This document shows, piece by piece, positions 1 through 8,869 of a stretch of DNA of 8,869 nt. Every line of letters starts with the position of its first letter. Within the stretch, counting starts at the first letter, position 1. The notes under the pieces were generated by a model that searched no databases, was not told the DNA's origin, and was given only the letters and a program-made list of their open reading frames with translations. The translations under genes and the position numbers were made by a program. This DNA is from a virus (Duplodnaviria > Heunggongvirae > Uroviricota > Caudoviricetes), in IMG/VR virus record IMGVR_UViG_2740892258_000018, positions 1-8,869 of that record; one strand, given 5' to 3'.

Positions 1-1338
1 ATGACGGGGGCAGATAGTGAAGGCGGAGCTGAGGTGTATTCAGCCGCAACCACGCGTGACCAGGCCAGAATCGTGTTTGAAGACGCCAAAAATATGGTCA
101 GAAAAGCCCGGTCGACACTCGGGCGGTTGTTTGATTTCAACAAGCTGGCGATTTACCAGGAGCAGAGCGCATCAAAATTTGAACCGCTTTCCTCGGATGC
201 AAACAACCTGGACGGTCTGAACATCCACTGCGCCATTATTGATGAGCTGCATGCACATAAAACCCGCGACGTGTGGGACGTTCTGGAAACGGCAACCGGT
301 GCCCGTCTGCAGTCCCTGTTATTTGGTATCACCACGGCTGGCTTTAACAAGGAAGGGATTTGTTACGAGCAGCGTGATTACGCCATCAAGGTATTGCGAG
401 GCTATAACAGCGACGTGGAGGGCGCTGTAAAAGACGACTCTTACTTTGCGATCATTTACACGCTCGATGAGGGAGATGATCCGTTTGATGAAACGGTCTG
501 GCAGAAAGCGAATCCTGGCCTGGGCATCTGTAAACGCTGGGATGATCTGCGTCGTCTGGCGAAAAAAGCGAAGGAGCAGGTCTCTGCGCGGGTGAATTTT
601 TTTACCAAACACATGAATGTGTGGGTCACTGCCGAATCTGCCTGGATGGATATGATTAAGTGGGAGAAGTGCGAATACATTGCTCCACAACATGAGCTGA
701 AAACATATCCCATGTGGGTCGGCGTCGACCTTGCTCATAAGATTGATATCTGTGCGGCGGCAAAACTCTGGCGAACCGATAACGGACATGTTCATGCTGA
801 TTTTAAATTCTGGCTTCCGGAAGGACGGCTGGAACGATGCTCGCGGCAGCAGGCAGAACTTTACCGGAAGTGGGCGGAGATGGATAAGCTCATCCTGACG
901 GATGGTGATGTTATCGATCATGCTCAGATAAAAAGTGACTTACTGGAATGGATTGGCGGTGAAAACCTCAGGGAACTGGGATTTGACCCGTGGAGCGCAA
1001 TGCAGTTCAGTCTGGCACTGGCTGAAGAAGGGATACCGCTGGTGGAGGTTCCGCAGACGGTCCGCAATCTGTCAGAGGCCATGAAGGAAACGGAATCACT
1101 GGTTTATGCCGGGCGTTTCCATCACAGCAATCATCCGGTCATGAACTGGATGATGTCTAACGTTACTGTAAAACCGGACAAAAACGACAACATCTTCCCG
1201 AATAAATCCACGCCGGAAGCCAAAATCGACGGCCCTGTTGCGCTTTTTACAGCCATGAGCCGCTTTCTGGTAAATGGCGGGGGCGTGAATGACTTTCTGT
1301 CCACGCTTGATCCTGATGAGGACCTGTTAATTCTGTGA
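1..1338 (+). CDS. Phage terminase large subunit (HK97/Terminase_1-like), 5'-partial: window starts inside the gene
   Basis: 445-aa ORF running from window edge to TGA at 1336-1338. Contains an ATPase Walker-B-like segment (HCAIIDELH) followed by a TTAG motif and a C-terminal nuclease-type region. Walker A is absent, so the N-terminus lies upstream of the window; the ATG at position 1 is probably coincidental. Family assigned by recognition of the translated sequence, no search run. Confidence 0.85.
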   Translation: MTGADSEGGAEVYSAATTRDQARIVFEDAKNMVRKARSTLGRLFDFNKLAIYQEQSASKFEPLSSDANNLDGLNIHCAIIDELHAHKTRDVWDVLETATGARLQSLLFGITTAGFNKEGICYEQRDYAIKVLRGYNSDVEGAVKDDSYFAIIYTLDEGDDPFDETVWQKANPGLGICKRWDDLRRLAKKAKEQVSARVNFFTKHMNVWVTAESAWMDMIKWEKCEYIAPQHELKTYPMWVGVDLAHKIDICAAAKLWRTDNGHVHADFKFWLPEGRLERCSRQQAELYRKWAEMDKLILTDGDVIDHAQIKSDLLEWIGGENLRELGFDPWSAMQFSLALAEEGIPLVEVPQTVRNLSEAMKETESLVYAGRFHHSNHPVMNWMMSNVTVKPDKNDNIFPNKSTPEAKIDGPVALFTAMSRFLVNGGGVNDFLSTLDPDEDLLIL

Positions 1339-1355
1339 AACAGCTTATTACTGAT

Positions 1356-1496
1356 ATGACCGGGCTGATCGGTTTCGGTCTGCTCACTGCTGGCGTTTAT
1401 CTGTATGCAGGTCTGCCAGCGTCTCTGATGCTGTCTGGCTGTTTGTTGCTGCTTTATGCACTGGTGGTGTCCATGAGGAGAAAACATGCTTCTTGA
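1356..1496 (+). CDS. Hypothetical small membrane protein (46 aa, two predicted TM helices) filling the terminase-portal gap
   Basis: ORF ATG 1356 to TGA 1494-1496, not in the supplied track (under 60 aa). Translation MTGLIGFGLLTAGVYLYAGLPASLMLSGCLLLLYALVVSMRRKHAS is strongly hydrophobic with a basic C-terminus. Its stop overlaps the portal start (1486). An in-frame GTG at 1335 overlapping the terminase stop would give 53 aa. No convincing Shine-Dalgarno, so coding status is uncertain. Confidence 0.3.
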   Translation: MTGLIGFGLLTAGVYLYAGLPASLMLSGCLLLLYALVVSMRRKHAS

Positions 1497-2712
1497 TGCT
1501 CTGTTTCGCAGTGAGCCTCTGGAAAATCCCTCGGTTCCGGTAACCGGAGAGGCCGCTGAGACGGATAATATTTTTGCCCGGGATGTGTATGTCAGTCCGG
1601 AAACGTCCATGAGGCTGGCTGCTGTCTATGCCTGTATTTATGTTATTTCATCCAGTGTGGCTCAGATGCCCCTGCATGTGATGCGAAAAACGAATGAGCA
1701 TGTTCAGCCGGCACGCGATCACCCGTTGTTCTGGCTCGTTCATGATGAACCGAATGCCTGGCAGACCAGCTATAAGTGGCGGGAACTGAAGCAGCGTCAT
1801 GTGCTGGGGTGGGGCAATGGTTATACGTGGGTGAAACGTAATCGTCGTGGCGAGGTTACCAGTCTTGAATGCTGTATGCCATGGGAAACCACGTTACTTA
1901 ACACTGGAGGGCGTCATACCTACGGTGTGTATAACGAAGAGGGTGCATTTGCGGTAAGTCCGGACGACATGATCCATATCAGGGCGCTGGGAAACAATCA
2001 GAAAATGGGACTGAGTCCGATCATGCAGCATGCTGAAACCATTGGTATGGGAATGAGTGGTCAGCAGTATACCAGTGCTTTTTTTAACGGTAATGCCCGT
2101 CCTGCCGGGATTATTTCTGTGAAAAATGAACTGAACGAACAGAGTTGGAGCAGGCTCAAGAATATGTGGCAGCGGGCGGTGACAGCGCTTCGCAGTCAGG
2201 AAAATAAAACCATGCTGCTGCCTGCGCAACTGGATTACCGTGCCCTGACAGTTTCTCCGGTGGATGCTCAGATCATTGATATGACCAAGCTGAACCGGTC
2301 GATGATTGCCGGAATTTTTAATGTCCCGGCGCACATGATTAATGACCTGGAAAAAGCCACATTTTCGAATATTACACAGCAGGCGATTCAGTTTGTTCGC
2401 TACACGATGATGCCCTGGGTTGCGAACTGGGAGCAGGAGCTTAACCGTCGCCTGTTTACCCGCACAGAACGGGCTGCCGGGTATTACGTTCGTTTCAACC
2501 TTACAGGATTGCTCCGCGGGACTCCACAGGAGCGTGCGCAGTTTTATCACTTTGCCATTACAGATGGCTGGATGAGCCGGAATGAAGCGAGGGCATTTGA
2601 GGACATGAACCCGGTTGATGGTCTGGATGAAATGCTGGTCAGCGTAAATGCAGCAAATCCGTTGAATGATTTTAAAGATACGAAAGGCAAAGAGGAAAAG
2701 AACGATGAATGA
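1486..2712 (+). CDS. Phage portal protein, HK97 family
   Basis: 408-aa ORF with strong RBS (AGGAGA 1475-1480, 5-nt spacer). Size and sequence character fit HK97-type portals, including a C-terminal acidic tail. Sits directly after the terminase, the canonical order. Confidence 0.85.
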   Translation: MLLDALFRSEPLENPSVPVTGEAAETDNIFARDVYVSPETSMRLAAVYACIYVISSSVAQMPLHVMRKTNEHVQPARDHPLFWLVHDEPNAWQTSYKWRELKQRHVLGWGNGYTWVKRNRRGEVTSLECCMPWETTLLNTGGRHTYGVYNEEGAFAVSPDDMIHIRALGNNQKMGLSPIMQHAETIGMGMSGQQYTSAFFNGNARPAGIISVKNELNEQSWSRLKNMWQRAVTALRSQENKTMLLPAQLDYRALTVSPVDAQIIDMTKLNRSMIAGIFNVPAHMINDLEKATFSNITQQAIQFVRYTMMPWVANWEQELNRRLFTRTERAAGYYVRFNLTGLLRGTPQERAQFYHFAITDGWMSRNEARAFEDMNPVDGLDEMLVSVNAANPLNDFKDTKGKEEKNDE

Positions 2713-3304
2713 CCGTGAAACGCGCTGTTACAGCGGGGAAGTGCGGGCAGAACAATATGATAATGCCCCGACTCATATTTTGGGGTATGGCTCGGTATTT
2801 AACAGTCGTTCAGAACCTCTGTGGGGATTTCGTGAAATCATCAAGCCGGGGGCTTTTGACGACGTGCTGAATGATGATGTACGTGGATTGTTTAATCATG
2901 ATCCTAATTTCATTCTCGGACGAAGTTCTGCCGGCACGTTGTCATTATCAGTGGATGAACGTGGTTTGCGTTACGACATTGTTGCACCGGATACGCCGAC
3001 GATTTGTGACCTGGTGCTGTCACCAATGTTGCGTGGTGACATTAATCAGTCCTCGTTCGCGTTTCGCGTCGCTCGTGATGGAGAGAGCTGGTATGAAGAC
3101 GACGAGGGGATTGTTATCCGGGAAATCACGCGCATTTCTCGTCTGTATGACGTCAGCCCGGTGACATATCCGGCCTATCAGGACGCAGACTCTGGTGTCC
3201 GCTCAATGAAAGCCTGGCAGGAAGCGCGGGCGAGTGGTGCGCTGAAGAAAGCTGTTAACGAACGAATGGCGCGTGAGCGTCTTTTGACCCTTCTTAATGC
3301 ATAA
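2705..3304 (+). CDS. Prohead maturation protease, HK97 family (peptidase S78-like)
   Basis: Track ORF starts at 2666, but the ATG at 2705 has a GAGGAA SD 8 nt upstream and overlaps the portal stop (ATGAATGA), so 2705 is the preferred start. About 199 aa; contains the conserved His-containing LFNHD motif and a downstream Ser-rich segment (GDINQSSFAFR) typical of HK97 gp4-type proteases. Position between portal and capsid is canonical. Confidence 0.8.
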   Translation: MNDRETRCYSGEVRAEQYDNAPTHILGYGSVFNSRSEPLWGFREIIKPGAFDDVLNDDVRGLFNHDPNFILGRSSAGTLSLSVDERGLRYDIVAPDTPTICDLVLSPMLRGDINQSSFAFRVARDGESWYEDDEGIVIREITRISRLYDVSPVTYPAYQDADSGVRSMKAWQEARASGALKKAVNERMARERLLTLLNA

Positions 3305-3318
3305 GGATACTACTGACG

Positions 3319-4536
3319 ATGAAACTTCATGAGATGAAGCAAAAACGAAACACCATTGCAAAGGATATGCGTGCACTGCATGAAAAAATTGGTGATAACG
3401 CATGGACTGATGAGCAACGGGCAGAGTGGAACAGGGCGAAAGCTGAGCTGGATGCGCTGGATGAGCAAATCGCCCGTGAAGAAGAGTTGCGCCGTCAGGA
3501 TCAGGCATATGTGGATGAGTCCGGGCCGGAAGAGCGCCAGAATAATGAGGCGGAGAACGGGAAAAAGGCGGTGGAAGAGAAGCGCGCTGCGGCATTTAAC
3601 CGTTTTCTGCGTGCCGGATTTGCAGAACTGAATGCTGAAGAGCGTAATCTGATGCGTGAACTGCGGGCTCAGAGTGTAACAACGGATTCTCAGGGCGGAT
3701 ATACGGTGCCCACGCAGATGCGTAACAAAATCATTGACACCATGAAGGCTTATGGCGGGATTGCCAGTGTTGCGCAACTTCTGACCACATCAACCGGGCA
3801 GGATATCACCTGGTCAACGTCTGATGGCACGACTGAAGAGGGCGAACTGCTGGCGGAAAATACAGCCGCAACGGAACAGGATGTGACGTTCGGGACCGCT
3901 ATTCTGGGGGCTAAAAAGCTGTCATCAAAAATAATTCGTGTGTCCAATGAGCTGCTCCAGGACAGTGGGGTGGATATTGAATCTTATCTGGCAAACCGTA
4001 TTGCCCAGCGTATTGGTCGTGGAGAGGCGAAATATCTGGTTCAGGGGACCGGAACGGGATCACCGTTACAGCCAAAAGGGCTGGCAGCGTCGGTGACGGG
4101 AATCATCCAGACTGCAGCCTCTGCCGCTTTCACCTGGAAAGAAATGAATGCCCTGAAACATGCCATTGATCCGGCATATCGTGGTGGGCCGAAATACCGC
4201 TGGGCATTCAATGATGCCACATTGCAGACTATTGAAGAGATGGAGGATGGACAGAAACGCCCGTTATGGCTGCCGGATATTGCAGGCGGTACGCCGGCTA
4301 CTGTGCTGGGGATCCCTTATGTTATTGATCAGGCTATTGACGGGATTGGTACCGGAAAAAAATTCATTTTCCTGGGGGATTTCAACCGCTTTATCATTCG
4401 CCGCGTTACTTATATGGAACTGAAACGTCTGGTTGAGCGTTATGCTGAGTTTGATCAGGTGGCATTTCTGGCTTTCCATCGTTTTGACTGTGTGCTGGAA
4501 GATGTGGCAGCCATCAAGGCGCTCACTGGCAAATAA
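3319..4536 (+). CDS. Major capsid protein, HK97 family, with N-terminal delta (scaffolding) domain
   Basis: 405-aa ORF with AAGGAT SD about 10 nt upstream. The N-terminal ~110 aa are charged and coiled-coil-like (EQRAEWNRAKAELDALDEQIAREEELRRQ...), as in HK97-type capsids that carry their scaffold in cis. The rest reads as an HK97-fold capsid body. Followed by an intrinsic terminator. Confidence 0.85.
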   Translation: MKLHEMKQKRNTIAKDMRALHEKIGDNAWTDEQRAEWNRAKAELDALDEQIAREEELRRQDQAYVDESGPEERQNNEAENGKKAVEEKRAAAFNRFLRAGFAELNAEERNLMRELRAQSVTTDSQGGYTVPTQMRNKIIDTMKAYGGIASVAQLLTTSTGQDITWSTSDGTTEEGELLAENTAATEQDVTFGTAILGAKKLSSKIIRVSNELLQDSGVDIESYLANRIAQRIGRGEAKYLVQGTGTGSPLQPKGLAASVTGIIQTAASAAFTWKEMNALKHAIDPAYRGGPKYRWAFNDATLQTIEEMEDGQKRPLWLPDIAGGTPATVLGIPYVIDQAIDGIGTGKKFIFLGDFNRFIIRRVTYMELKRLVERYAEFDQVAFLAFHRFDCVLEDVAAIKALTGK

Positions 4537-4556
4537 CCACTCGTTGTTCAGTTACA

Positions 4557-4580
4557 GACCGCGCCGACGCGGTTTTTTTA
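4557..4580 (+). terminator. Rho-independent terminator/attenuator downstream of the major capsid gene
   Basis: Sequence GACCGCGCCGACGCGGTTTTTTTA: stem ACCGCG (4558-4563) pairs with CGCGGT (4568-4573) around loop CCGA, followed by a run of 7 T (4573-4579). Lies 21 nt after the capsid stop. Confidence 0.6.
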
Positions 4581-4602
4581 TGCCCGCACAGTGTTGCGGG
4601 CA
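4581..4602 (+). promoter_or_regulatory. Perfect 8-bp inverted repeat (TGCCCGCA-N6-TGCGGGCA) overlapping the SD of the connector gene
   Basis: TGCCCGCA at 4581-4588 and its exact reverse complement TGCGGGCA at 4595-4602, spacer CAGTGT. The 3' arm overlaps the GGAG SD (4603-4606) of the gene starting at 4613. No T-tract follows, so it is more likely an operator or translational-control hairpin than a terminator. Confidence 0.35.
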
Positions 4603-4612
4603 GGAGTTTCTG

Positions 4613-4930
4613 ATGGCAGCAATAGTGGAAAAACTCAGGGCGCAGTGCCGTATTGATACAGATGATGCAACTGATGATGAGTTACTGATGCTGTATTTCC
4701 GGGCTGCCTGCCGCAAGGCAGAAAATTTTATCAACCGTAAGCTTTATGAGGAGACGGTGCCGGAAGGTGATCCTGAAGGGGTGCTTATAGCTGATGATGT
4801 TTTGCTGGCGCTCATGTTGCTGGTCGGGCACTGGTACGAAAACCGGGAAAATTCCTCAGATGTCAGCAAGGCACCAGTCCCGTTTGGTTTTTCTTCTCTG
4901 CTGGAGCCTTATCGTTTTATTCCTTTGTAG
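4613..4930 (+). CDS. Head-tail connector protein (gp6-like, Phage_connect_1 family)
   Basis: Track ORF 4433-4930 overlaps the capsid gene and spans the terminator, so the ATG at 4613 (GGAG SD 4603-4606, 6-nt spacer) is the likely start. About 105 aa; the N-terminal pattern LRAQCRIDTDDATDDELLMLYFRAA is characteristic of gp6-like connectors. Confidence 0.75.
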   Translation: MAAIVEKLRAQCRIDTDDATDDELLMLYFRAACRKAENFINRKLYEETVPEGDPEGVLIADDVLLALMLLVGHWYENRENSSDVSKAPVPFGFSSLLEPYRFIPL

Positions 4931-4938
4931 GAGGAGAC

Positions 4939-5277
4939 ATGCAGGCGGGCAGATTACGTGATCGCGTAATTATTCTGAATGTCACCACCGCCCGCTCTCC
5001 GTCAGGGCATCCGGTGGAGACGGTGACGGAGGGAGCTACCGTATGGGCAGAAGTTAAGGGTATCAGCGGGAGGGAGATAATCTCAGGCGGAGCAGAAACC
5101 GCTCAGGCTACGGTCAGAGTCTGGATGAGATTCCGGCGCGATGTGACAGCGACTTCACGTCTGAAAGTGCTGACCGGTGCATTTAAAGGGGCCATTCTGG
5201 GTATAGAAGGTCCACCAATACCGGATGCACGCGCTACCCGGCTTGAAATACTCTGCAGCCTGAAGGGGAATGTGTGA
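4939..5277 (+). CDS. Head closure / head-tail adaptor protein (SPP1 gp16-like, Phage_H_T_join family)
   Basis: 112-aa ORF with strong SD AGGAGGAG (4929-4936). Pattern RDRVIILNVTTARSPSGHPVETVTEGATVWAEVKGISGRE...RVWMRFRRDV fits head-closure proteins. Canonical position after the connector. Confidence 0.75.
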   Translation: MQAGRLRDRVIILNVTTARSPSGHPVETVTEGATVWAEVKGISGREIISGGAETAQATVRVWMRFRRDVTATSRLKVLTGAFKGAILGIEGPPIPDARATRLEILCSLKGNV

Positions 5278-5723
5278 TGGATTTCAGTCTTGATTTTTCC
5301 GGCCTGGCGGATATTGCACGGGATTTGGAGACGCTCAGCAGGGCAGAAAACAATAAGGTTCTGCGCGATGCCACCCGTGCCGGTGCTGAAGTTATGCGGG
5401 ATGCAGTTGTTGAACGTGCGCCGGAGCGAACCGGGAAACTGAAGAAAAATGTGGTTGTTCTCACTCAGCGTTCAAAGCGTCGGGGGGAAATTATCTCGGG
5501 TGTCCACATTCGCGGACGGAACCTGCGAACCGGAAACAGTGATAACAGCATGAAAGCCAGCGATCCCCGAAATGCATTTTACTGGCGCTTTGTGGAGCTG
5601 GGAACGATAAACATGCCCGCGCATCCATTCATTCGCCCGGCTTTCGATACGACAGAGGAACTGGCAGCACGGATTGCTATACAGCGAATGAATCAGGCTA
5701 TTGATGAGGTCTTAAGTAAATGA
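5277..5723 (+). CDS. HK97 gp10-family phage protein (neck/tail-attachment component)
   Basis: ATG at 5277 overlaps the upstream TGA (TGATG), indicating translational coupling. About 148 aa, with the ERAPERTGKLKKN segment matching the P..TG.L pattern of the gp10 family. Confidence 0.65.
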   Translation: MDFSLDFSGLADIARDLETLSRAENNKVLRDATRAGAEVMRDAVVERAPERTGKLKKNVVVLTQRSKRRGEIISGVHIRGRNLRTGNSDNSMKASDPRNAFYWRFVELGTINMPAHPFIRPAFDTTEELAARIAIQRMNQAIDEVLSK

Positions 5724-6055
5724 GAGAGGCCACACTGTATTCCCTGTTGTCTCAGCTGGCCGGAGGACAGGTTTATCCTTATGTGGTCCCACTGACGGAG
5801 GGAAAGCCTGCGGTATCTCCGCCGTGGCTGGTGTTTTCTGTGGTGTCTGACACGGCATCTGATGTGCTTGATGGGCAGGCTGAATCCAGAATTACCGTGC
5901 AGATCGATGTCTGGGCGACAGTACCTGATGACGCAGATAATATTCGTGAGCAGGCGCTTGATGCGGTAAGAAAACTGGCTGCCGCTACGGTCCGATGCGT
6001 GAAAACCCGGGCTTGCAGCGACCGTTCCGGTCGCGCCGCCCCTGTCGCGCCGTGA
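5720..6055 (+). CDS. DUF3168-like protein (gp11-like tail completion/neck protein); C-terminus possibly altered
   Basis: ATGA overlap with the upstream gene at 5720-5723. N-terminal two thirds (LYSLLSQLAGGQVYPYVVPLTEG...WLVFSVVSD...ITVQIDVWA) fit DUF3168 proteins. The last ~20 aa (RCVKTRACSDRSGRAAPVAP) are Cys/Arg/Pro-rich and read like translated GC-rich non-coding DNA. Confidence 0.5.
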   Translation: MREATLYSLLSQLAGGQVYPYVVPLTEGKPAVSPPWLVFSVVSDTASDVLDGQAESRITVQIDVWATVPDDADNIREQALDAVRKLAAATVRCVKTRACSDRSGRAAPVAP

Positions 6056-6439
6056 CCTGCGCTCCCTGCACACCTGACGGTGTGTGAGGAAACTGCGCCT
6101 GATGGCGCAGCAGTCCTCCCTCCTGCCGCCCCCCCTGCGGCCTGTTTCCCCGCTGTGGACTTTCCGGGGGGCAGACGTAACCCCCTCCCGTTCCATCTGT
6201 CCAGGGTGAGATGCACCGGCCACAAAATTTTTAGCCATGAACCCGGCAAAAAATTTTGCGTCCGCCCCCGGACAGCTGCCCCGTGAGGCGGTAAACGGGC
6301 CCCCATCGGAAAGGTCCACTGCGGGGAGAAACCCCTGTGAAGTGGACGGCAGGAGGAGCTTTCGCTCCTCTGAAGGGGCACATGAACGTCCCGTCGCCGG
6401 TATCCGGTTTATCTCACATCTTTCAGTCAGGAGGTTCTT
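6056..6439 (+). promoter_or_regulatory. GC-rich structured non-coding region upstream of ssb; candidate single-stranded-DNA promoter (Frpo/ssi-like)
   Basis: 384 bp with no credible ORF. Nested imperfect inverted repeats: CACACC/GGTGTG (6070-6084); CTGCGCC/GGCGCAG (6093-6110); long-range arms CCCGCTGTGGACTTTCCGGGGGG (6148-6170) versus CCCCCATCGGAAAGGTCCACTGCGGGG (6300-6326); inner AT-rich pair CACAAAATTTTT (6219-6230) versus AAAAAATTTTG (6248-6258). Ends at the ssb SD AGGAGG (6429-6434). Plasmid leading regions are known to carry ~300-nt hairpin-forming ssDNA promoters upstream of ssb, psiB and ardA. Confidence 0.45.
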
Positions 6440-6967
6440 ATGAGTGCACGTGGTATCAACAAGGTCATCCTCGTCGGGCGTCTGGGCAATGATCCGGAAG
6501 TCCGTTACATCCCCAACGGGGGCGCAGTGGCAAACCTGCAGGTGGCCACATCAGAAAGCTGGCGTGACAAACAGACGGGGGAGATGCGGGAGCAGACGGA
6601 ATGGCACCGCGTGGTGCTGTTCGGCAAGCTCGCGGAAGTGGCAGGTGAATATCTGCGCAAGGGTGCGCAGGTCTACATCGAAGGTCAGCTTCGCACCCGT
6701 AGCTGGGAAGATAACGGTATCACCCGTTACGTCACTGAAATTCTTGTTAAGACCACGGGCACCGTGCAGATGCTGGGACGTGCACCACAGCAGAACGCTC
6801 AGGCGCAACCGAAGCCTCAGCAGAATGGGCAGCCACAGAGTGCTGACGCGACGAAAAAAGGTGGCGCGAAAACGAAAGGCCGTGGACGTAAGGCCGCGCA
6901 GCCAGAGCCTCAGCCGCAACCGCCGGAGGGGGAGGATTACGGGTTTTCAGACGACATCCCGTTCTGA
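6440..6967 (+). CDS. ssb: Single-stranded DNA-binding protein, conjugative-plasmid type
   Basis: 175-aa ORF with AGGAGG SD 5 nt upstream. N-terminal OB-fold ([99 protein letters not shown]), a Gln/Pro-rich linker and the acidic tip DDIPF. The linker is [21 protein letters not shown] rather than the Gly/Gln-rich linker of chromosomal E. coli SSB, so it resembles F/IncI plasmid SSB more closely. Confidence 0.95.
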
Positions 6968-6987
6968 TCGGGCTGACTGTGACAACC

Positions 6988-7006
6988 GCCCCGCCCTGTG
7001 CGGGGC
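6988..7006 (+). other. GC-rich hairpin in the ssb - ParB-like intergenic region
   Basis: GCCCCGC (6988-6994), loop CCTGT, GCGGGGC (7000-7006). No T-tract follows, so it is more likely an mRNA-stabilising or processing hairpin than a terminator. Confidence 0.3.
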
Positions 7007-7024
7007 ATCACCGGAGATATGAGG

Positions 7025-8869
7025 ATGAGCGAATATTTCAGAATACTTCAGGGACTCTGCCCTGCTGGCGCAGACGGAGGAAGTGAGCGTGCCGCTGGCC
7101 TCGCTGATTAAATCACCGCTGAATGTGCGCACGGTGCCGTATTCTGCGGAGTCCGTCAGCGAACTGGCGGAGTCCATTAAGGGCGTCGGACTGCTGCAGA
7201 ATCTGGTCGTGCATACCCTGCCTGGTGACCGTTACGCTGTCGCCGCAGGCGGTCGCCGACTGGCAGCACTCAACATGCTGGCAGAGCGCAACATCCTTCC
7301 GGCTGACTGGCCTGTACGCGTGAAGGTCATTCCGCAGGAGCTGGCGACTGCCGCATCGATGACCGAGAACGGTCAGCGTCGGGATATGCACCCTGCCGAA
7401 CAGATTGCCGGATTCCGCGCAATGGCGCAGGAAGGCAAAACGCCTGCACAAATCGGTGATTTGCTGGGCTATTCACCCCGCCACGTTCAGCGAATGCTTG
7501 TCAGGCGCTGGCGCTGGAGAACGACACCGCGCGTCAGGTGCAGGTGTTTGAAGCCGCCTGCCAGTCGGGATGGGGCGGTAAACCGGAAGTACAGACCATT
7601 CGTCGTCTGGTGACCGAAAGTGAAGTGGCGGTGGCGGGGAACAGTAAATTCCGCTTCGTGGGGGCTGATGCCTTCTCGCCAGACGAACTGCGCACCGATT
7701 TGTTCAGCGATGACGGGGACGGTTATGTCGACCGCGTGGCGCTCGATGCCGCCCTGCTGGAAAAACTCCAGGCTGTCGCAGAGTTCCTTCGGGAAGCCGA
7801 AGGCTGGGAATGGTGCGCCGGACGCATGGAGCCTGTCGGTGAGTGCCGTGAAGATGCCCGGGCATACCGCAACCTGCCGGAGCCGGAAGCGGTGCTGACG
7901 GAGGCGGAAGACGAACGTCTGAACGAACTGATGGCTCGTTACGACTCGCTGGAAAACCAGTGTGAGGAATCTGACCTGCTGGCAGCAGAAATGAAGCTGA
8001 TTGACTGCATGGCGAAGGTCAGGGCGTGGACGCCGGAGATGCGTGCCGGAAGTGGCGTGGTGGTGTCCTGGCGTTACGGTAATGTGTGTATCCAGCGTGG
8101 TGTGCAGTTGCGCAGTGAGGATGATGTGGCTGACGACGCTGACCGCACGGAACAGGGGCTGGAGAGCGCGTCAGTGGAGGAAATTAGTCTGCCGTTGCTG
8201 ACTAAATTGACCTCAGAGCGCACGCTGGCAGTCCAGGCAGCACTGATGCAGCAACCGGACAAATCCCTGGCACTGCTGGCATGGACGCTCTGCCTGAATG
8301 TGTTTGACAGCAAAGCGCATAGTAGTCCCGCCAGAATTCGCCTGGAATGTGAGCATTATGCGCTGACCAGCGATGCACCGTCAGGGAAGGAAGGTGCCGC
8401 ATTCATGGCGCTGATGGCAGAACACTCTCGTTTTGCTGCCCTGCTGCCGGAAGGATGGGAACGGGATATGACGACGTTCCTGTCACTTAGCCAGGAGGTG
8501 CTGTTATCCCTGCTCAGTTTCTGTACCGCGTGCAGTCTTAACGGTGTCCAGACCCGCGAGTGTGGTCACACGTCACGCAGTCCGCTGGACTCGCTGGAAA
8601 CCGCCATCGGCTTTCACATGCGCGACTGGTGGCAGCCGACAAAAGCAAACTTCTTCGGACACCTGAAAAAGCCGCAGATTATCGCAGCCCTGAATGAGGC
8701 CGGACTGTCCGGTGCCGCACGGGACGCGGAGAAAATGAAGAAAGGCGATGCGGCTGAACATGCAGAGTTCCATATGAAAGACAACCGCTGGGTGCCTGGC
8801 TGGATGTGTGCACCACGTCCACAGACGGATGCCACTGAACACACCGCTAACCTGGCTGATGCCGCCTGA
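7025..8869 (+). pseudogene. ParB-N-domain (ParB/sulfiredoxin-like) protein gene of plasmid leading-region type, interrupted by two frame changes
   Basis: ATG 7025 (GGAGA SD 7012-7016) opens MSEYFR... but stops at TAA 7109-7111. A second frame is open from 7029 to 7613 and carries the ParB-N-like core (GVGLLQNLVVH...AAGGRRLAALNML...RDMHPAEQIAGFRAMAQEGKTPAQIGDLLGYSPRHVQRML). From about 7502 the first frame resumes (QALALENDTARQVQVFEAACQSGWGG...) and runs ~455 codons to TGA 8867-8869. The three segments together make one ~600-aa protein. Confidence 0.7.
7031..7050 (+). repeat. 10-bp tandem duplication (GAATATTTCA / GAATACTTCA) in the first codons of the ParB-like gene
   Basis: Direct adjacent copies at 7031-7040 and 7041-7050, one mismatch. 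Removing one copy fuses ATG 7025 in frame to the ParB-N domain, giving MSEYFRDSALLAQTEEVSVPLASLIK... Confidence 0.7.

Follow-up and report, generated by a model that had tools for sequence, protein, structure and literature searches.

Among the conjugative plasmids that belong to IncF, IncI and related groups, the genes ssb, parB2, psiB and psiA form a conserved cluster of the leading region (PMC8406263). The ParB2 protein of pED208 is translocated through the T4SS, and deletion of parB2 in this plasmid left plasmid transfer, T4SS assembly and SOS induction without detectable change (PMC8406263). In the present study, we analysed a stretch of 8,869 nt (the window, whose positions are used below unless another sequence is named) in which a parB-like gene of such a cluster is interrupted by a change of reading frame. 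The window is an exact substring of the contig CVOH01000144.1 (GCA_001245225.1, 82.7 kb), and the accession CVOH00000000 belongs to the E. coli K1 strain A192PP (PMC5054322). For A192, the sister or parent strain from the same laboratory, 2x151-bp MiSeq reads were assembled with Velvet and VelvetOptimiser (PMC5115809).

The ParB-like gene and its split copy

In the megablast search with positions 6960-8869, thousands of enterobacterial plasmids matched, the best of them being 100% identical in three pieces. At least 5,000 plasmid records match the ParB-like region, nearly all of them across its full length, and 49 intact plasmids are at least 99% identical over 6960-8869. The locus of plasmid pSCU-123-2 (NZ_CP051713.1, here L001) was chosen as the IncI-type reference to which the window was aligned. 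In this plasmid the gene is one CDS of 1,959 bp, encoding 652 aa annotated as 'ParB/RepB/Spo0J family' and lying between ssb/DUF905 and psiB; the homologue of p582 is likewise one CDS, of 1,965 nt. The version in the window is split into ORFs of 176 aa and 443 aa and is without its native start. On the source contig the genes follow in the order SSB, ParB_N, a 419-aa ORF, PsiB and PsiA', and the same order is found in the IncI and IncF references. This synteny, ssb - (DUF905) - parB - psiB - psiA, is the one expected for a leading-region ParB-like protein.

The Pfam search detected ParB_N (PF02195) in the window ORF at 7083-7613 (E=7.6e-9, 35.9 bits, cutoff 26.3). In the intact reference, ParB_N occupies residues 41-131 and HTH_ParB (PF17762) residues 136-222 (E=2e-8). 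HTH_ParB was detected in neither of the window ORFs, residues 174-196 being missing, and we attribute the loss of a detectable contiguous HTH_ParB in the window to an assembly gap. No Pfam domain was found in the 7499-8869 portion of the gene.

The ORF at 7083-7613 (frame 0) carries the ParB_N core and is protein-like as far as ...GYSPRHVQRML; 3' of this motif it continues as a tail rich in Arg and Trp and stops at 7613. A second frame, which is -1 relative to the N-terminal part of the gene, reads ...CQALALENDTARQVQVFEAACQSGWGGKPEVQTIRRLV... and stays open through to the TGA at 8867-8869, the end of the window. Alignment to the intact homologue of pSCU-123-2 placed the break at 7498|7499. The piece at 7056-7498 (plus strand; 443 nt, IncI-specific, codons 27-173 with ParB_N and the first half of HTH_ParB) corresponds to L001 8436-8878, and the remainder of the gene at 7499-8869 (plus strand; codons 197-652 and the stop) corresponds to L001 8946-10316, each with 100% identity and no mismatches. 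The two pieces are joined end to end at 7498|7499, where exactly 67 nt are absent, GAAACTGG...CAGAGCAC, equal to ParB nt 522-588. The residues lost are K174-H196 (KLADLAPVILDALAEDRITTEH), inside the HTH_ParB domain, and the alignment of the window to L001 showed no microhomology at the joint. The first-pass annotation, made from the window alone, had placed a frame change in the ParB-like gene at this point and explained it by a short deletion not divisible by three; both statements hold as a description of the deposited sequence and of its proximate cause, since 67 nt are missing relative to intact IncI-type plasmids. It had also proposed aligning the two segments to intact homologues, and in this alignment residues K174-H196 were absent at the junction.

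The junction itself was searched for with a 50-nt query (25 nt on each side), designed so that it is matched only by records having the joint. With megablast it had no match in plasmids or complete E. coli genomes, and an exact 37-nt pattern had no match in viral, genome or metagenome contigs. The 176-aa ORF has no record as an exact protein because the gene caller chose another start.

A second end-to-end joint lies at 7056|7057, where the alignment to L001 showed 339 nt missing, with an ambiguity of 1 nt. This gap takes out DUF905 from codon 12 to its end, the intergenic region, and the ParB start with the first 26 codons. To its left, the IncI-type leading-region block at 5977-7055 (plus strand) is 100% identical to pSCU-123-2 (L001 4357-4858 and 7520-8097) and carries a repeat region of ssi/Frpo-like type, the ssb gene (6440-6967) and DUF905 up to its 11th codon (from 7025). 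The earlier reading had taken the upstream lesion to be a duplication; a repeat search over 5900-8869 gave only short chance repeats, and the lesion actually present upstream is the 339-nt gap at 7056|7057. A third gap, of 437 nt, interrupts psiA beyond the end of the window (window coordinate 9465; 13746|13747 in L002, the 20 kb of CVOH01000144.1 around the window that were mapped against the references) and cuts psiA to a 49-aa call.

Two further features of the leading region were observed. A group II intron is inserted in pSCU-123-2 at the site equivalent to 6478|6479. The segment 5977-6370, upstream of ssb, is a repeated element, whose other copies in the IncI plasmid are 86% (L001 13363-13754) and 81% (L001 16823-17147) identical. 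Its position is that for which Frpo/ssi single-strand promoters are described.

Block ends shared with an IncF-type copy

For comparison with an IncF-type copy, we used the ssb-DUF905-parB-psiB-psiA locus of the ColV plasmid p582_124850 (L007). From ssb to psiB, this copy has 89% identity to the IncI-type reference, and just seven of the identical runs between them reach 57 nt or more. At all four block ends of the 339-nt and 67-nt gaps, the terminal 56 nt are found exactly in the IncF copy and the 57th base is different, a count that allows for the 1-nt ambiguity of the 339-nt joint. Expressed in L001 coordinates, the block ends or starts are 8096, 8436, 8878 and 8946, and the closest IncI-specific variants are 8040, 8492, 8822 and 9002, always at a distance of 56 nt. 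At the 339-nt gap, the last 56-mer of the left block (7000-7055) is an anchored exact match of 56 nt to p582 (L007). At the 67-nt gap, the left block closes with the 56-mer at 7443-7498 (last IncI-specific variant L001 8822, block end 8878) and the right block opens with that at 7499-7554 (block start L001 8946, first IncI-specific variant 9002). The 443-nt piece at 7056-7498 has both its first 56 nt and its last 56 nt exactly in the IncF copy.

We considered whether the deleted blocks are simply those parts in which the IncI and IncF copies do not differ. This was rejected: the deleted blocks hold divergent positions and the block ends sit in shared runs, and it was this arrangement which led to the k-1 reading given below. 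No motif common to the gap boundaries was seen, whether of splicing-like removal, of restriction sites or of another kind.

A shared terminus of constant length, 56 nt, indicates that the block ends are ends of k=57 de Bruijn nodes and not biological breakpoints. Given how the blocks are arranged, the exact 56-nt signature and the further misjoins seen in the contig, it is very probable on sequence grounds that the frame change was produced by assembly and scaffolding of the A192PP draft genome and not by mutation. The break at 7498|7499 is almost certainly an artefact rather than a real biological feature.

The proposed mechanism starts from two diverged leading-region clusters, about 89% identical, carried by an IncI-type and a ColV/IncF plasmid respectively. 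In a k=57 graph, each stretch of at least 57 nt identical in both copies would become a shared node, and a node would stop where its terminal (k-1)-mer also occurs in another sequence of the sample. The IncI-specific nodes would then terminate exactly 56 nt (k-1) past the last copy-specific base, and where shared stretches are closely spaced the nodes between them may be too short to keep or resolve. The 67-nt gap lies between shared runs of 65 and 62 nt, and the 339-nt gap between shared runs of 60, 141 and 62 nt. At the 67-nt gap, the expected chain would be a long IncI node to L001 8878, a 65-nt shared node, a 164-nt IncI node (which would hold the variants at L001 8888, 8897 and 8939), a 62-nt shared node, and a long IncI node from 8946. 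Paired-read scaffolding would have linked the flanking long nodes, with the gap written as a direct end-to-end joint; dropping of the three short nodes would lose 67 nt, and the same structure would apply at the 339-nt gap. Shared runs of 90 and 67 nt that stand alone between long unique nodes were correctly bridged, which would be what read threading can resolve.

This mechanism needs a second copy of the cluster. A192PP appears to have an IncF-type ssb-DUF905-parB-psiB-psiA copy on a ColV/IncF plasmid, because ColV segments are present in the contig, the 56-mer signature is found, and a plasmid-borne tra locus has been reported in this strain (PMC5847654). It also needs an explanation for the missing gap characters. 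There are no runs of N at the gaps of the CVOH01000144.1 joints, and Velvet would normally mark a scaffold gap with such a run; hence, an additional step must be assumed in which the gap characters were taken out or were never written. We infer both the identity of the assembly software and the step removing these characters. The blocks of the window are 100% identical to intact IncI-type plasmids and differ from them by clean gaps only (339 and 67 nt, and 437 nt further along the contig). On the artefact reading, A192PP most likely has an intact parB-like gene of the IncI type, with a single ORF of 652 aa.

The first-pass annotation had taken two independent lesions to suggest that a leading-region gene is in genuine decay. 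Real deletions of 67 bp and 339 bp in the IncI-type plasmid of A192PP, making the gene a true decaying pseudogene, would agree with the existence of the lesions in the deposited sequence. Natural frameshifted genes do occur in the leading region, psiA of p582 being annotated as frameshifted, and the loss could be tolerable given the pED208 parB2 deletion with no detectable effect (PMC8406263). However, on both sides of the two sites the distance to the closest IncI/IncF variant is exactly 56 nt. With the lengths of the identical runs observed as the basis, the chance of an anchored run of exactly 56 at a random position is 0.002, and four such ends have a chance of about 2e-11. A real deletion would not start and stop exactly k-1 nt from variants in another plasmid, and it is on this account that we read the break as an artefact. 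Furthermore, the joint at 7498|7499 is without microhomology, the junction and the chimeric ORF are in no other public sequence searched, and several other joints of the same contig are clearly artificial. The conclusion of genuine decay is thus contradicted by all four block ends, and we regard deletions in the plasmid itself as improbable.

Other joints of the source contig

The order of blocks in L002 begins with the chromosomal hprS-hchA-porin region, present as two blocks concatenated despite their true overlap. In IHE3034 the two blocks overlap by 47 nt; in the contig they were concatenated unmerged, and a 47-nt tandem duplication stands in the hchA-porin intergenic region (L002 1873|1874, upstream of the window). 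These blocks are followed by a 297-nt piece with no source assigned, and then by a fragment of cvaA, the colicin V export gene of the ColV plasmid (L002 3592-4277). Next are the prophage head block, which begins within TerL at codon 141, and four collinear IncI-type blocks with gaps of 339, 67 and 437 nt. A second cvaA fragment (L002 14844-15076) is joined to a bor/iss-like piece (L002 15077-15572), 95% identical to a prophage of EC958, and after a 460-nt piece with no source assigned (L002 15573-16032) the ColV etsCBA operon follows, in which a comparison of 4,304 nt with p582_124850 gave 1 mismatch.

The prophage head-module block occupies 1-5979 (plus strand) and is 100% identical to chromosomal prophages of the ST95 strains IHE3034 and O18. 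The prophage is of HK97 type, and the genes in the block are TerL (from its internal Met141), portal, protease, capsid, connectors, a gp10-like gene and the 5' part of gp17. The block starts 4 nt upstream of the window, where it adjoins the ColV cvaA fragment (window 1-3 = L002 4278-4284). TerL has 585 aa in IHE3034 and the first ATG of the window is its internal Met141; as the block boundary falls at Met141, the '445-aa terminase' is a truncated product. The prophage DNA forms an assembly block of its own, to which the plasmid DNA has been joined. At its other end, the joint between gp17 and the IncI-type leading region lies at 5977-5979 (L002 10258-10260, 3-nt ambiguity); there gp17, a phage tail-completion gene, is broken mid-gene, giving a chimeric 111-aa ORF (5720-6055) which is on record on a single contig only, CVOH01000144.1. 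Most likely, this joint too is a misjoin of scaffolding. Among E. coli genomes, the 56-mers at the ends of the phage block recur in several different settings within prophages, at up to 4 places per genome, and this recurrence is only suggestive.

The 56-nt length was found again at other joints of the contig. In p582 the two cvaA pieces are adjacent and overlap by exactly 56 nt, which makes them neighbouring k=57 nodes; the contig places them at a distance of 10 kb from each other. The opening 56 nt of the bor/iss block are exactly common to a prophage. Another block start (B3) was found again reverse-complemented as a 56-mer, with its partner at L002 15687. Exact anchored 56-nt matches were present at 9 block termini in L002: the four ParB-gap ends, the bor/iss start, the cvaA ends (the end of B10 and the start of B4), and the start of B3 together with its partner. 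Against the proxies p582, pSCU-123-2 and the EC958 prophage, the 5977-5979 joint, the psiA 437-nt gap and the plasmid end gave no 56-nt match, and these three joints probably need other repeats of the strain itself to explain them. The 437-nt psiA gap showed no microhomology, and p582 as a proxy does not account for it, its psiA being only about 67% identical there.

If the contig were correct as deposited, a 4.6-kb piece of IncI leading region carrying three homology-free deletions (339, 67 and 437 bp) would lie between prophage and ColV DNA, and it would be the trace left by end joining after incoming conjugative DNA had been fragmented. In favour of this reading, the plasmid blocks are collinear and in the same orientation with non-IncI DNA on either side, and the joints have 0-3 nt of homology. 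Nevertheless, the k-1 = 56 signature links the breakpoints to an assembler parameter, and the flanking cvaA pieces are adjacent nodes with a 56-nt overlap. The bor/iss piece is also on the wrong side: in intact prophages bor/iss is upstream of terS/TerL, whereas in the contig it is downstream of the head genes and the plasmid blocks. Among 5,426 complete E. coli genomes and 72,556 plasmid records, none covers more than 67% of the window, and the chained order chromosome, ColV, prophage, IncI, ColV was found in 0 of the genomes and 0 of the plasmids. With no second example in these collections or among the records of the chimeric ORF, we judge a real mosaic to be still more improbable than plasmid deletions.

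A division into two normally separate genes, or their joining by programmed ribosomal frameshifting, has in its favour only the two open frames of the window and is scarcely worth entertaining; it is already refuted by alignment to intact homologues, which have one continuous ORF of 652 aa in a region matched by at least 5,000 plasmid records, with the break falling inside the HTH_ParB domain (residues 136-222) and 67 nt of coding sequence simply missing. The idea of the first-pass annotation that the two frames are parts of one gene is accordingly borne out, as intact plasmids have a single ORF and not two neighbouring genes.

Implications and comparison with known systems

With the frame change read as a scaffolding artefact, nothing new is learned about the underlying ParB-like gene. 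The sole value of the finding at 7498|7499 is a warning on draft assemblies together with a simple k-1 test. Short-read drafts of strains with two related conjugative plasmids (IncI and IncF/ColV) can hide end-to-end joints free of N, and such silent joints resemble frameshifts, truncations and phage-plasmid chimeras. Pseudogene counts, inferences of 'gene decay' and discoveries of chimeric elements would be wrong if they were made from contigs of this kind. For triage the test can be reused: it asks whether a suspect joint is bounded on both sides by (k-1)-mers that a paralogous copy shares and whose length is constant. Since A192PP serves as a reference genome for TraDIS (PMC5847654), its misjoined ORFs could affect gene-level TraDIS calls.

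In the comparison with the leading-region ParB2 proteins, the gene underlying the copy in the window is one of them, with ParB_N and HTH_ParB domains and a place between ssb/DUF905 and psiB. Every block retained from it matches the IncI-type allele WP_001145476.1 (652 aa) with 100% identity. The deposited copy differs from ParB2 in being without the start and the first 26 codons and in having a 67-nt gap in the HTH domain, differences that we ascribe to assembly. With genuine frameshifted pseudogenes of the leading region, such as psiA of p582_124850, it has in common that a non-essential leading-region ORF is split into two frames; in contrast to them, its breakpoints follow the k-mer length of an assembler and the lesion is present in one draft contig only. 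From a de Bruijn-graph scaffold misjoin the locus differs in that its gaps are without a run of N. In other respects it is like such a misjoin: the blocks end in (k-1)-mers common to a second copy, with a constant 56 nt across many joints; the missing parts are short nodes between closely spaced shared runs only; and the same contig contains a chimeric order of replicons and a duplicated overlap.
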